A stretch of 43,864 nt of DNA from a virus (Duplodnaviria; Heunggongvirae; Uroviricota; Caudoviricetes), in IMG/VR virus record IMGVR_UViG_2698536620_000007, one strand, 5' to 3'. Position 1 is the stretch's first letter. Each line of letters starts with the position of its first letter. A program made the translations under genes and the position numbers. The notes beneath the pieces were generated by a model that was given only the letters and a program-made list of their open reading frames with translations, was not told the origin of the DNA and ran no database searches. Of this stretch, positions 141 to 39,924 are shown in pieces.

Positions 141-141
141 G

Positions 142-339
142 CTATTACCTTCTTCAGAGAGCCCCCAGCTACTTCCTGTGACTCTCGATGCAGCTGCCGA
201 ACAGCCAGAATCGCTCGCAGAGGACCCGAAAACCCTCAGTATCAGCTGTGAGGTAACGTTCCGGCACGGGACGCTCCGCTTCAATGGCAATGTCAGCGAA
301 AAGCTCCTGACTCTGCTGATACAGGAACTGAAGCGATGA
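142..339 (+). pseudogene. IS66-family orfA (TnpA accessory protein) 3' fragment, truncated by the IS3-family insertion
   Basis: Open frame begins exactly at the IS3 end (the first 10 codons of track ORF 109..339 are IS-derived). It ends with an ATGA overlap onto the IS66 orfB start at 336, the usual IS66 orfA/orfB coupling. Confidence 0.6.
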
Positions 340-659
340 TCCCGTTACCTTCCGGGATCAAAATTTGGCTGGTTGCCGGTATCACCGATATGAGAAATGG
401 CTTCAACGGCCTGGCTGCGAAAGTACAGACGGCGCTGAAAGACGATCCCATGTCCGGCCATGTTTTCATTTTCCGGGGCCGCAGCGGCAGTCAGGTTAAA
501 CTGCTGTGGTCCACCAGTGACGGACTGTGCCTCCTGACCAAACGGCTGGAGCGTGGGCGCTTCGCCTGGCCGTCAGCCCGTGATGGCAAAGTGTTCCTTA
601 CACAGGCGCAGCTGGCGATGCTGCTGGAAGGTATCGACTGGCGACATATAACCAGGTGA
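336..659 (+). CDS. IS66-family Orf2/TnpB protein
   Basis: 107-aa ORF with the IS66 Orf2 signature (IWLVAGITDMRNGFNGLAAKV...DPMSGHVFIFRGRSG..VKLLW...GRFAWP). Confidence 0.85.
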   Translation: MIPLPSGIKIWLVAGITDMRNGFNGLAAKVQTALKDDPMSGHVFIFRGRSGSQVKLLWSTSDGLCLLTKRLERGRFAWPSARDGKVFLTQAQLAMLLEGIDWRHITR

Positions 660-661
660 AT

Positions 662-820
662 CATTTGATACCGACAAGGGGTTTAGTGAAAGGAGGTGAA
701 ATCACCTGTAAGATACTGAAATAAAACAGGTGATGGCTAGATGTGCGGATAAGGTCTATTTGATACCGATTGTGCAATAATTAGTCATTTATTATAAAAT
801 CGGCAACTCATTTGATACTG
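662..820 (+). repeat. Left-end (attL-like) array of putative transposase-binding repeats
   Basis: CATTTGATACCGA at 662-674, TATTTGATACCGAT at 757-770, CTCATTTGATACTG at 807-820; the same core is found inverted at the right end. Confidence 0.55.
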
Positions 821-892
821 TGGTTTTAGTCTTTTAAGGCGTTCCAAACAATGCGAAATACTCGATATAGTGCAAAATGCGGGCTAATGCTA

Positions 893-1438
893 TTAACCCG
901 CTTTTGGTTCTACCGCGTTAGATTTGCGACTTCTCTCAGTTTCTTCCAAAATCTCTCTGACGCGTTCGTCAGACATACCTTCAAGCTGTAATGCAGCTAT
1001 TCTTTTCCTTCCTTCTAAGCGGATTAGATCTTGATTTTCAGGCTCTAACAACCGAGCTAAGTACTTGGCTCCATTCAGAACCAAATTTTTCGATAGCTGC
1101 TCTAAGTCTTTTTCATCAAGTGCGCTGATAATCGTCATAATTATCTTCTTGCTTTCATCTTGATTTTCCTTGATCTCACACCGATTCACTTGTGATGCAT
1201 CACTGAATCCACATAGCCACTCAACACTTACTCCTTCGATAGACGCAATCTGAAGGGCGACACTTAAGGATGGCTCAGTGCCACGAGACAGATAATTGTT
1301 TAGTGTTGAAAATGAAAGCCCCCAATCTCTTGCTGCAGCTCTGACGCTGCGGGAGCCAATCAGCCTTTTCAGACGCTCAGCAATGCTTTCTTTTCTACCA
1401 CCAGGAAAAGAAAGAGATGTTGTTGTTTGCTTGTTCAT
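893..1438 (-). CDS. Prophage repressor (Mu c-like, HTH)
   Basis: 181-aa minus-strand ORF at the left end, divergent from ner, as in Mu. HTH-like segment AARDWGLSFSTLNNYLSRG. Confidence 0.65.
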   Translation of the reverse strand: MNKQTTTSLSFPGGRKESIAERLKRLIGSRSVRAAARDWGLSFSTLNNYLSRGTEPSLSVALQIASIEGVSVEWLCGFSDASQVNRCEIKENQDESKKIIMTIISALDEKDLEQLSKNLVLNGAKYLARLLEPENQDLIRLEGRKRIAALQLEGMSDERVREILEETERSRKSNAVEPKAG

Positions 1439-1570
1439 TTTCTTTTCTTCCTATCAATTTGAAATTATTAACTTTTAGTGTTGTCAGCAACCATTGATCC
1501 ACAATAGACAAAAGAAAGATGTTTTTTTTGCTTTACATGAAGCAGAAGTGGATCAATACTTATATCAAAC

Positions 1571-1594
1571 TTGATAACTAAGTTTAGTTATCAA
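1571..1594. promoter_or_regulatory. Perfect palindromic operator candidate between repressor and ner
   Basis: TTGATAACTAA-GT-TTAGTTATCAA (11-bp arms). Inverted half-sites TTGATCCAC (1494-1502) and GTGGATCAA (1548-1556) lie upstream, each containing a GATC. Confidence 0.4.
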
Positions 1595-1623
1595 ATTTCG
1601 TAACTTTTTAGGATAGATGAATC

Positions 1624-1854
1624 ATGGCGAGAAATGAAGTTAAGCCTGATTGGCATCCTCAAAGAATTTTGGGGGAAGTCAGAGCCAGAGAAGGAAGCAT
1701 GAGGGCGCTGGCCCGTAAAGCTGGCGTGGGTCAGAACAATCTGTACAACGCGGTATACCGCCATGTTCCCAAGTATGAGGGGATTATCGCGGAATGCCTG
1801 GGGGTGCCGCCCGAGGAGATTTGGCCCAGCCGCTACATTCGTAAGGTCGCGTAA
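1624..1854 (+). CDS. ner: Ner-like DNA-binding early regulator
   Basis: 76 aa directly upstream of the transposase; C-terminal EEIWPSRY matches the Mu Ner family. Confidence 0.8.
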   Translation: MARNEVKPDWHPQRILGEVRAREGSMRALARKAGVGQNNLYNAVYRHVPKYEGIIAECLGVPPEEIWPSRYIRKVA

Positions 1855-1856
1855 TT

Positions 1857-37585: not shown

Positions 37586-37752
37586 CAATACAAACCGGTG
37601 GTGTCCTCTGCCGGTTTGACACTAATGAAAACATCTTTGCCGCTATCCAGCCATATGTAATCGCTGGATAGTATTTCGTATTCAGAAATATAGCTGCTTA
37701 TGGAGCAGTCAATCCTGCTTCCCCATCCGGGCAGGCAAATGAACCGGTATCA

Positions 37753-38046
37753 TTAGTCCGATTCACGCTTTTGTAGAATCGTTCCCAGAATGCTATACAG
37801 CTCATTAGCCTGTTGCTCCATCATTGAGACGGAGGCTATACGGTGCAAAGTGATTTCAGGAGGTGGCACACCTCCATCTTCTTGCTGTGGAGGAAAAACA
37901 TAAGATTTAATAAAAAAGTTGAAGCATATGAACTCTCCCGCACTCGAACTGTATTTGCAGGCATCTGAATAATCGGAAAAATAATCATTATAGATTTCCG
38001 CATTTTCAATCATTTTTCGATTTCTCGTCGTTACATGATTGTCCAT
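37753..38046 (-). CDS. Hypothetical protein, divergent from com (moron-like)
   Basis: 97-aa minus-strand ORF with RBS AAGAGG; embedded in an AT-rich segment. Confidence 0.4.
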   Translation of the reverse strand: MDNHVTTRNRKMIENAEIYNDYFSDYSDACKYSSSAGEFICFNFFIKSYVFPPQQEDGGVPPPEITLHRIASVSMMEQQANELYSILGTILQKRESD

Positions 38047-38238
38047 AGCAGCCTCTTACGCTGGCAATTAACCAATTGACTTCTATAAATTAGTTGATTT
38101 GTTTGCTTTGCGGTATTCAAATGTACAATCATTCAGCACTTATGCGTTACAGCACCGTTTAAAATTAGTGATCAAACTCATAAATTTTCGCTAATGACAT
38201 TTCGTGTTATTTGTTGTATCAATTAAATAAATCAAATC

Positions 38239-38255
38239 GATCGTTTTTGTCGATC
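38239..38255. promoter_or_regulatory. Tandem GATC (Dam) sites in the com/mom upstream region
   Basis: TCGATCG...TCGATCGA, two GATC 13 bp apart, about 50-65 bp upstream of the com ATG. Confidence 0.4.
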
Positions 38256-38302
38256 GATTGAGTGATAAAGATATCAACAACAAAGCAGGAGGTTATGCGG
38301 CC

Positions 38303-38503
38303 ATGTATCGAAACATACGGTGCCGACATTGTAACAAGCTACTGGCACGAGCCAGCTTCAGTTATCTGGAAGTTAAATGTCCGCGCTGTAAAACCCTCAA
38401 TCAAATCACATCTCAGAGCGCCACAGAGCACCCCACATACACAAGGAAATCCTGTCGTGGGGAACAGAAAGCAAGTTACATCCCGTATCATCAGCACGCC
38501 TGA
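38303..38503 (+). CDS. com: Com-like zinc-finger translational regulator
   Basis: 66 aa [14 protein letters not shown]...KCPRCK with Cys7/Cys10/Cys26/Cys29 spacing like Mu Com; RBS GGAGG 10 nt upstream. Confidence 0.6.
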
Positions 38504-39194
38504 ACTTATTCACTATAACGACAATATCGTCGGTTATGGCTCCCGTGAGTTACGGGTTGAGACAATAAGTTGCTGGCTGGCCCGGCTGGTCGTCGTCAAT
38601 AAACATTACAGCCATCGTTTCGTAAATAATTCCTACCTTCATCTGGGCATATTTTCAGAACGGGAGCTGGTTGGCGTAATGCAATGGGGTTATGCCCTTA
38701 ATCCAAACAATGGTGCACGCGTCGTAACTGGCACGCAGAACCGCGAATATATGGAGCTTAACCGGTTATGGCTGCATGACTGTATGCCGAGAAACTCCGA
38801 ATCAAGGGCAATCAGTTACGCGCTCAAACTAATCAGACAACTTTATCCGCAGGTGCAGTGGGTTCAGTCGTTTGCAGATGAGCGTTGTGGCTGTCTTGGT
38901 GTCGTGTACCAGGCAAGCAATTTTGATTATGTAGGCAGTCATGAAACAACATTCTATGAACTTGATGGCGAGTGGTATCACGAGATTTGCAAGAATGCAA
39001 TCAAACGAGGAGGACAGCGAGGTGAACATCTGCGGGCTAATATCGACAGAGCCAGTGTTCATAAATTCCGTCAGTTTCGTTACATCCGGTTTCTGGACAA
39101 GAGAGCCAGAAAACGCCTTAACACAAAGCTATTCAAAGTCCAGCCTTACCCAAAACCACAAACAGTTAAAACTGGTTTGAAAGAGAGTGAATGA
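38457..39194 (+). CDS. Mom-like DNA modification protein (start uncertain; the frame is open from 38262)
   Basis: Large ORF overlapping and following com at the right end of a Mu-like genome. Assignment rests on synteny; candidate starts are GTG 38262, ATG 38295 and GTG 38457. Confidence 0.45.
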
Positions 39195-39238
39195 ACGCTT
39201 AAAAACTCATTCTAAAACTCAAAAGAAAAGCGCCGATT

Positions 39239-39305
39239 TAGTATCAAATAAGTTGCGTATCGGCGTTTTTCAGCGGTATCAAATGAAATGCAAATCGGTA
39301 TCAAA
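39239..39305 (-). repeat. Right-end (attR-like) array of putative transposase-binding repeats
   Basis: TATCAAATA (39239-39250), CGGTATCAAATG (39274-39285), TCGGTATCAAA (39295-39305): the left-end core in inverted orientation. Confidence 0.55.
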
Positions 39306-39412
39306 AAAATCGCCGCGCTATAGACAGCCTAAGCGGCTGCTGACCTCCCTGACCATGCTGTAAATCTCTTTATCCTGGTTGTCACAGAATAAGCCCGGTA
39401 AAATACGGGCTT

Positions 39413-39871
39413 ATGAACGACATCTCTTCTGACGACATCTTCCTGCTGAAACAGCGCCTTGCCGAACGTCAGTTGAAAACGAAACCGCTGCTGAAATCCC
39501 TGGAAAGCTGGCTGCGTGAAAAGATGAAAACCCTGTCGCGACACTCAGAACTGGCGAAAGCGTTCGCATATGCCCTGAACCAGTGGCCGGCGCTGACGTA
39601 CTATGCAGATGATGGCTGGGCTGAGGCGGACAATAACATCGCTGAAAATGCGTTGCGGATGGTCAGTCTGGGCCGCAAAAACTACCTGTTCTTCGGTTCG
39701 GATCATGGAGGAGAGCGGGGAGCGCTGCTGTACAGCCTGATCGGGACGTGCAAACTGAACGGAGTGGAGCCAGAAAGCTACCTCCGCTATGTCCTTGACG
39801 TCATAGCCGACTGGCCGATAAACCGGGTCGGCGAACTGCTCCCCTGGCGCGTAGCACTGCCGACTGAATAA
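39413..39871 (+). pseudogene. IS66-family transposase TnpC, C-terminal fragment
   Basis: Conserved IS66 TnpC C-terminal block (AEADNNIAENALR...LGRKNYLFFGSDHGGERGALLYSLIGTCKLNGVEPESYLRYVL...VGELLPW); the N-terminal roughly two-thirds is absent. Confidence 0.75.
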
Positions 39872-39924
39872 CACATTCCCGTCAATACGGTTCTTGCTGC
39901 ACGCTTACGGTAAACACCCCGGAA

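Follow-up and report, generated by a model that had tools for sequence, protein, structure and literature searches.

An IS66-family element broken at three places

The window, by which we mean the whole 43,864-nucleotide stretch of DNA that was analyzed (IMG/VR record IMGVR_UViG_2698536620_000007), carries a dead ISEc22/ISEc8-like IS66-family element, 2,442 bp long if intact, that has been hit by three separate events. Its neighbors are phage tail-fiber genes and an ipaH gene, and the host chromosome is presumably of the Shigella sonnei type, judging from near-identical loci. Scans of the window for tRNAs and Rfam families were both empty. The features of the broken element, from left to right, are as follows.

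1–140, plus strand: right end of IS600 (IS3 family), consisting of the 3' end of orfB and the right inverted repeat ...CAGTACACCTCA; the window starts inside this element
141–143, no strand: right copy of the 3-bp IS600 target duplication, GCT
141–339, plus strand: 3' part of the IS66-family tnpA, from the third base of codon 61 to the stop codon at 337–339
336–646, plus strand: tnpB codons 1–103 and two bases of codon 104 (Pfam TnpB_IS66, E = 1.2e-37; comparison with the intact 115-aa TnpB)
643–646, no strand: left copy of the 4-bp prophage target duplication, GACA
647–39322, plus strand: Mu-like (Sp18-type) transposable prophage, 38,676 bases as written (~38.6 kb), including a 52-N scaffold gap at 32752–32803
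39323–39326, no strand: right copy of the 4-bp prophage target duplication, GACA (junction alignments and empty sites)
39327–39363, plus strand: displaced 3' end of tnpB, from the third base of codon 104 to codon 115, with TAA at 39361–39363
39413–39871, plus strand: tnpC with a 1,080-bp in-frame internal deletion, residues 1–18 being joined to 379–512 (152 aa)
39450–39467, plus strand: deletion junction, where the 18-nt direct repeat AACAGCGCCT(G/T)GCCGAAC is left as one hybrid copy
39882–39908, minus strand: right inverted repeat of the IS66-family element (reverse complement GTAAGCGTGCAGCAAGAACCGTATTGA)

Assignment to the IS66 family is supported by the presence of TnpB_IS66 and DDE_Tnp_IS66 Pfam domains and by a collinear 99% match to an intact annotated element. 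This reference, L004, is the IS66-family copy on the aggregative-adherence plasmid of Escherichia coli O104:H4 (NZ_CP023533.1, ~17812–20253; L004 2727–5168). In blastn alignments, positions 141–646 of the window correspond to L004 3001–3506 (99.6%), 39323–39467 to 3503–3647, and 39450–39911 to 4710–5171; the retained parts are 98.6 to 99.6% identical in nucleotide sequence (E = 0), far beyond chance. Both copies have the tnpA-tnpB-tnpC gene order, the ATGA overlap of tnpA and tnpB, the 49-bp tnpB-tnpC spacer and an identical right inverted repeat (GTAAGCGTGCAGC...), while in the window IS600 interrupts tnpA, the prophage interrupts tnpB, and 1,080 bp of tnpC are missing. The junction alignments, with IS600 in tnpA and the Mu-like prophage between two IS66 blocks, bear out the nested insertions that an earlier, sequence-only reading of this DNA had proposed.

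IS66-family inverted repeats beginning GTAAGCG are the landmarks of the element's ends. The right one is in the window, and comparison with both inverted repeats of the intact L004 copy places the end of the element at 39908 instead of the previously suggested 39920. The left one lies outside the window, beyond IS600, together with the 5' part of tnpA. Unlike its L004 counterpart, the left inverted repeat at this locus, as seen in sister genomes, is without its first 9 bases, and a search on the far side of the neighboring IS110-family element did not find them there. The intact copy in L004 is flanked on both sides by the 8-bp target duplication AGTTGAAT; at this locus no 8-bp duplication of the element was found, the left end being truncated and no copy of the right flank, GGTAAACA, abutting that end.

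IS600 is a simple insertion in tnpA

The window itself holds just the terminal 140 bp of IS600 at each of its two ends, as inverted copies. Across the complete IS600, the 5' part of tnpA can be seen in the genomes L007 and L017. The L007 sequence reads ...GCTGCT/IS600/GCTATT..., as against an uninterrupted ...GCTGCTATT... in L015 and in L004, where tnpA occupies 2819–3199; IS600 is a simple insertion in tnpA with the 3-bp duplication GCT. The full IS600 of L007 is 1,264 bp long, ends at this junction, has TGAGG... inverted repeats and is 99.9% identical to copies annotated as "IS3-like element IS600 family transposase." An IS3-family end that cuts IS66 orfA at 140/141 had been recognized earlier, in agreement with an IS600 end at 140 and tnpA sequence from 141 onward.

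The prophage is a simple insertion in codon 104 of tnpB

On the intact reference, the IS66 flanks of the prophage abut with a 4-bp overlap, GACA (L004 3503–3506), and the corresponding empty site, GGTATCGACTGGCGACAGCCTAAGC, is present in L007 and L015. The prophage entered codon 104 of tnpB by a clean simple insertion that duplicated 4 bp of the target and removed none of it. The flanks, formerly taken to be noncontiguous across the prophage, are contiguous by the L004 alignment at this junction, the very outcome that the sequence-only reading had named as contradicting it. A search for a 5-bp target duplication had been suggested; the flanks read CGACA and AGACA (or GACAT and GACAG), with an exact 4-bp GACA instead.

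Nor is orfB (tnpB) intact, as was first believed, since the prophage breaks it two bases into codon 104 (of 115) and its remainder follows on the other side. The 107-codon open reading frame at 336–659 ends in ...DWR-HITR*; its final four codons and its TGA (657–659) belong to the phage, and the last 12 tnpB codons (translation QPKRLLTSLTML*) are found at 39325–39363. Reading at the level of open reading frames is misleading here: a seemingly intact frame is a tnpB that has been cut short and takes its stop codon from the phage. The same tnpB::prophage junction is present in the complete genome L017 (99.985% over 6,660 bp); database hits to the junction comprise a 4.93-Mb complete chromosome and 108 other blocks.

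tnpC carries an in-frame deletion between direct repeats

The ATG at 39413 is the authentic tnpC start. Two blastn segments overlap at 39450–39467, which coincides with an 18-nt sequence present twice in L004 (3630–3647 and 4710–4727), 1,080 bp apart, with 17 of the 18 positions matching and both copies encoding QRLAE. The loss of ~1.1 kb of tnpC reported in the sequence-only reading is real, at exactly 1,080 bp, but the frame at 39413–39871 does not consist of only the C-terminal ~150 codons, as that reading had it; the supposed C-terminal fragment is an N-terminus-to-C-terminus fusion of residues 1–18 with 379–512, a second case where the open reading frame by itself misleads. According to Pfam, only profile positions 195–283 of DDE_Tnp_IS66 and the C-terminal element remain in the residual TnpC, while the leucine zipper, the zinc finger and two-thirds of the DDE domain are lost.

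In ten other assemblies (L007 to L016), exactly this 152-aa deleted TnpC is encoded immediately downstream of an intact 115-aa TnpB, and the site is free of the prophage. Once the prophage and one GACA are removed, the window aligns with L007 gap-free over 3,950 bp at 99.95% identity, and with the prophage-free loci as a group (L007 to L016, e.g., HE616528.1, CP026802.1, and CP044191.1) gap-free at 99.85 to 99.95%. These loci have in common with the window the IS600/tnpA junction (except L015, which is without IS600), the tnpC deletion and the downstream tail-fiber genes, and differ from it in their intact tnpB. In HE616528.1 a related Mu-like prophage, distinct in its repressor region, is instead inserted in the tail-fiber gene, 1.2 kb farther to the right. 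Because the same deletion occurs in ten assemblies that have no prophage at the site, the tnpC deletion is independent of the prophage; it probably also predates it.

Four types of the locus were seen: with neither insertion (L015, where the deletion is nevertheless present), with IS600 only (L007 to L014 and L016), with the prophage only (L018), and with both (the window and L017). The L015 and L018 sequences are not complete chromosomes but shorter contigs of 68 and 48 kb, respectively, and L018 might be a chimera with a plasmid IS1-IS66 junction. With all four types present, either IS600 or the prophage may have been inserted first. Searches of all 5,426 complete E. coli genomes and of representative genomes for 185,579 species found no copy of the deletion junction, and the deletion looks like a single event in this lineage.

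Three separate events account for the locus

Replicative transposition of the Mu type can produce deletions adjacent to the element, and ~1.1 kb of tnpC is truly missing close to a transposable prophage. It had accordingly been proposed that a Mu-like phage entered the end of an intact orfB and that replicative transposition then removed the adjacent ~1.1 kb, the 5' two-thirds of tnpC. A deletion of this kind must have one endpoint that coincides with a phage end; here, however, 127 bp of uninterrupted IS66 sequence (39323–39449) separates the right end of the prophage from the deletion, running from the 3' end of tnpB through the 49-bp spacer into the first codons of tnpC. Unlike Mu-promoted adjacent deletions, the one at this locus has no endpoint at a phage end, accompanies a GACA target duplication that flanks the prophage, and exists in the ten assemblies without the prophage. 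Taken together, the contiguity of the flanks, the 127-bp gap and the prophage-free genomes refute the earlier attribution of the tnpC loss to transposition, and we regard this course of events as extremely unlikely.

The deletion or the nested layout might alternatively reflect short-read scaffolding, e.g., a collapse between repeats, given that the window is a scaffold with a 52-N gap and that both its ends stop 140 bp inside inverted IS600 copies. This has a practically negligible probability: the deletion junction is the same in many assemblies, including chromosome-sized records of 4.8 to 5.0 Mb, the prophage junction recurs in the complete chromosome and the 108 database blocks mentioned above, and an 18-nt repeat is too short for assembly collapse.

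The region is dense with insertion sequences, and an earlier mobile-element event, such as an insertion followed by imprecise loss, could be imagined as the source of the 1,080-bp deletion in place of slippage or recombination between short repeats. What is left at the junction, however, is precisely one hybrid repeat where the intact element has two copies; the junction contains no foreign bases, and the deletion is exactly in frame. Such a combination is the usual signature of repeat-mediated deletion, which is favored for this reason, and an origin in an earlier mobile-element event appears highly unlikely.

We conclude, with a probability of about 0.93, that the locus was shaped by three separate events. 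An in-frame deletion between 18-nt direct repeats took 1,080 bp out of tnpC, most likely by replication slippage or short-homology recombination, as suggested by the microhomology at the junction; IS600 entered tnpA by simple insertion, duplicating GCT; and the ~38.6-kb Mu-like prophage entered codon 104 of tnpB, likewise by simple insertion, duplicating GACA. The locus needs no special transposition-linked deletion. Its overall layout is ordinary, stepwise mobile-element decay in a genome rich in insertion sequences, and no novel reading is left for the IS66 deletion itself; the main value of the analysis is the correction, with the junctions mapped to the base.

An Sp18-type prophage with 4-bp target duplications and TA termini

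Over its whole length, the prophage matches one that is inserted in sgrR of E. coli (L001) at 99.7 to 99.95% identity. It has the Mu-type gene order, with transposase A, ATPase B, Gam, Mor, Mu-type head and tail genes, Gin, Com and Mom (annotation of the 99.7%-identical prophage; Pfam). The following features were mapped.

893–1438, minus strand: repressor
1624–1854: ner
1857–3944: transposase (HTH_Tnp_Mu_1 and Mu-transpos_C are among the Pfam hits of the prophage)
4018–4959: MuB-like ATPase (Phage-MuB_C is among the Pfam hits)
~38258–39194: com/mom
664–818, plus strand: three TTTGATAC end repeats at the left end (starts 664, 759, and 811), likely transposase-binding sites
39241–39305, minus strand: three TTTGATAC end repeats at the right end (starts 39241, 39276, and 39298)

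Of the seven exact copies of TTTGATAC in the window, three lie at the left end of the prophage and three, inverted relative to these, at the right end; on both sides 17 nt separate the outermost copy from the terminus. Together with these symmetric repeat positions, four independent insertions of near-identical prophages fix the left terminus (5'-TATAACCAGG...) at 647. A left end at the TG of 657, inside the orfB stop codon at 657–659 as previously placed, was rejected, as the sequence conserved between independent insertions reaches 647.

In its gene order (repressor, ner, A, B ... com, mom) and its invertible tail-fiber segment, the prophage resembles Sp18 of E. coli O157:H7 Sakai and, more distantly, phage Mu. 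With Sp18 it also shares the right-end sequence, the 4-bp duplication and insertion at unrelated sites, but its left 1.3 kb (immunity region) is just ~80% identical, and its left terminus is TA where Sp18 has TG. Compared with Mu, the window prophage duplicates 4 bp and not 5, its 3' end is TA and not CA, and in a PDB sequence search its transposase matches MuA weakly and in the N-terminal DNA-binding domain only. Identity with Shigella phage SfMu was also considered and rejected. Most SfMu proteins reportedly share >90% identity with the corresponding proteins of Mu or D108 (PMC4406740), the present transposase matches MuA weakly, and neither Mu nor SfMu was among the matches listed in a megablast search with the left 2.4 kb.

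Members of the prophage lineage are inserted at seven independent, unrelated sites, and exact 4-bp duplications were found in all seven, two of which were checked against empty sites. A 5-bp duplication was rejected, in that moving the assumed phage ends by one base rescues 5 bp in none of the seven. The termini are TA...TA in the window prophage and TG...TA in Sp18 and its relatives, and none has 5'-TG...CA-3'. Mu-like phages are described as duplicating 5 bp of target and B3-type phages 6 bp (PMC8705779), and TA-TA ends with 6-bp duplications have been described in one paper for Leptospira prophages; we found no description of 4-bp duplications in the literature on Mu-like phages. A 4-bp stagger and a TA 3' terminus would depart from the 5- or 6-bp duplications and the TG-CA rule stated for Mu- and B3-like phages. 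The 4-bp duplications and TA termini are the one mildly unusual side point, of possible interest to workers on transposable phages if undescribed before. At slightly below even odds, and from sequence comparison, we tentatively suggest that the transposase of the Sp18-type enterobacterial lineage may cut its target with a 4-bp stagger and accept TA in place of CA at the 3' terminus. The same tentative reading includes a hint of a local integration hot spot, because the insertion sites of two heteroimmune members of the lineage, each in a different S. sonnei-type genome, are no more than 1.2 kb apart.

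Mapping to an intact IS66-family element

The reference was a complete tnpA-tnpB-tnpC element located at positions 2727-5168 of L004, a locus on a plasmid of Escherichia coli O104:H4 (NZ_CP023533.1); it measures 2,442 bp and is flanked by the 8-bp duplication AGTTGAAT. The alignment of both flanks to an intact member, as proposed in the sequence-only reading, was run with blastn; it yielded three collinear blocks, mapped the junctions and gave a deleted interval of 1,080 bp.

Blocks of the window aligned to L004 (blastn)
Block 1: window 141-646, L004 3001-3506, 99.6% identity
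Block 2: window 39323-39467, L004 3503-3647, 98.6% identity
Block 3: window 39450-39911, L004 4710-5171, 98.9% identity

Blocks 1 and 2 share four reference bases, GACA, and the IS66 sequence is therefore contiguous across the prophage, with its target duplicated by 4 bp; the flanks previously described as non-contiguous abut on the intact element. Blocks 2 and 3 have 18 window bases in common and are separated by 1,080 bp on L004. The element ends with its right inverted repeat at 39908 rather than at 39920.

The tnpB gene, earlier considered intact, is broken: its native frame holds IS66 sequence only as far as the second base of codon 104 (of 115), and the open reading frame (ORF) then runs into four phage-derived codons (HITR) followed by a TGA (657-659) that is also phage derived. 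The displaced final 12 codons (QPKRLLTSLTML and a stop) are found at 39325-39363. Constant prophage sequence begins at 647, and not inside that TGA.

Outside the window, in the sister locus L007 (7877) and in L015 (9143), a contig with neither IS600 nor the prophage, the first 9 bases of the IS66 left inverted repeat (GTAAGCGTA) are missing, and the shortened repeat directly adjoins the end of an IS110-family element. The missing bases were sought on the far side of that IS110-family element and were absent.

The tnpC deletion occurs without the prophage

The ATG at 39413 is the counterpart of the tnpC start in the reference (L004 3593), and the 152-aa product consists of TnpC residues 1-18 fused to residues 379-512. 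Both the leucine-zipper and the zinc-finger domain are gone from it, as are profile positions 1-194 of the DDE domain (284 positions in all). The estimated loss of about 1.1 kb holds (exactly 1,080 bp, in frame, with no filler bases), while more than the C-terminal ~150 codons remains, as residues 1-18 are also kept. L004 carries direct repeats AACAGCGCCTGGCCGAAC (3630-3647) and AACAGCGCCTTGCCGAAC (4710-4727), each encoding QRLAE, and the window retains a single hybrid copy (39450-39467). Judged from the sequence, such a pattern would be left by slippage or by recombination over short homology.

A Mu-associated adjacent deletion, as initially suggested, is refuted by the distance of the deletion from the prophage end (it starts 127 bp to the right) and by its presence in prophage-free loci. 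Many assemblies encode precisely this 152-aa product, and an intact 115-aa TnpB directly precedes it, with no prophage in tnpB, in all 10 loci retrieved. With 647-39326 removed, the window aligns to L007 without gaps over 3,950 bp (99.95%), and the empty prophage site reads GGTATCGACTGGCGACAGCCTAAGC. In L015, the deletion is present and IS600 is also absent. The deletion junction was found in none of 5,426 complete E. coli genomes and was absent from the species-representative genomes searched. Because it is shared across prophage-free loci, including one without IS600, and its junction is absent from both genome sets, the deletion looks like one event within the lineage of the window locus and is unrelated to the prophage. 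Of the three lesions, it is probably the earliest.

Prophage identity and 4-bp target duplications

The prophage ends were set from independent, near-identical insertions in E. coli (sgrR, the PilZ-domain/bcsA region and a diguanylate cyclase gene). All share the stretch from TATAACCAGG... to ...CGCCGCGCTATA, which in the window spans 647-39322. Each end has exactly three copies of the motif TTTGATAC, in inverted orientation between the ends, with the outermost copy 17 nt from the terminus. Apart from the N gap, the prophage shows 99.7-99.95% identity to the sgrR copy along its whole length, and its gene order is that of Mu. Identity with the Shigella phage SfMu was rejected. In PDB sequence searches, the 695-aa transposase (1857-3944; Pfam domains HTH_Tnp_Mu_1 and Mu-transpos_C) gave a match to MuA that was confined to the N-terminal DNA-binding domain (E = 7e-6), while its core gave weak matches to retroviral integrases (E about 2e-4) and none to the MuA core. 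A complete 4.93-Mb chromosome shares the tnpB::prophage junction, as do 108 further database blocks.

In this prophage lineage, seven of seven independent insertions, Sakai Sp18 and the HE616528.1 prophage among them, are flanked by exact 4-bp duplications: GACA, AACA, GACG, TACG, GCTG, ACTG and TAAA (sites in L001-L003, L010/L030, L019, L028 and the window); two were compared with true empty sites, and none of the seven can be read as 5 bp. Where a 5-bp duplication had been anticipated, the window has GACA at 643-646 and 39323-39326. The right terminus is TA in every copy (...TATA-3', not CA), while the left terminus is TA in the window prophage and TG in Sp18 and relatives (window 643-650 and 39319-39326). 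Canonical Mu generates 5-bp duplications and has TG...CA ends, in contrast to the Sp18-type 4-bp duplication and TA right end. A 2021 paper gives 5- or 6-bp duplications and TG-CA ends as the rule, with unusual TA-TA ends reported in Leptospira (PMC8705779). No description of the 4-bp case was found in the searchable literature, which was incomplete.

Where the invertible tail-fibre (G-type) segment has its border, next to a Gin-like recombinase gene (34256-34828), 52 N (32752-32803) replace about 9 bases. Both segment orientations probably occurred in the sequenced culture and left this gap in the scaffold; the tail-fibre ORF is broken only in appearance. RefSeq annotates a "tRNA-OTHER" in near-identical E. 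coli prophages (17674-17753, minus strand, of the sgrR locus L001; window about 18104-18183); ARAGORN and Rfam scans of the window were empty.

IS600 and the order of insertions

The window, a scaffold built from short reads, has an IS600 copy at either end, the two being inverted, and stops 140 bp inside each (1-140 and 43725-43864 match the IS600 right end exactly, in opposite orientations). At the same junction, L007 has a complete IS600 of 1,264 bp, whose identity to copies bearing the annotation "IS3-like element IS600 family transposase" is 99.9%. IS600 interrupts the 381-nt tnpA after nucleotide 183; complete genomes carry the absent 5' portion across IS600, with GCT duplicated, indicating a simple insertion. 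Of the nested-insertion observation, the IS600 end at 140/141 and the prophage-split IS66 stand, while several junction details and the adjacent-deletion mechanism do not.

Since IS600 and the prophage inserted in different genes, nesting gives no order between them.

Combinations of the two insertions
Neither: L015
IS600 only: L007-L014, L016
Prophage only: L018
Both: window, L017 (a complete genome)

These four combinations fit no single event order. They could stem from repeated insertion of IS600 at a single site, from recombination, or from errors in the assembly of contigs L015 and L018. Over 6,519 bp, L018 matches the window at 100% identity, and an IS1 end abuts its IS66 left end.

The right flank

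The locus shows ordinary decay of an insertion sequence in a genome of the Shigella type. The host was assigned from assemblies bearing near-identical loci, which we take to be S. sonnei, and from plasmid records of S. sonnei whose accession numbers lie nearby. In HE616528.1, a related Mu-like prophage lies 1.2 kb to the right in a tail-fibre gene, with GCTG duplicated (L010 11124/11125, window about 40536), a site that is empty in the window. From the transposase onward, its identity to the window prophage is 99.3%; in the repressor/ner region, which is of the Sp18 type, the figure is 78%. Two heteroimmune relatives landing so near each other would be unlikely under random integration.

An ipaH gene (41851-43566, minus strand) encodes a 571-aa protein. 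Its N-terminal half and upstream region (42631-43723) have no match to L007, where IpaH has 603 aa, and either recombination between ipaH paralogs through the shared C-terminal region or an assembly join accounts for this mismatch. The exact 571-aa IpaH is encoded in other chromosomes at a different IS600-flanked locus (L020-L024).
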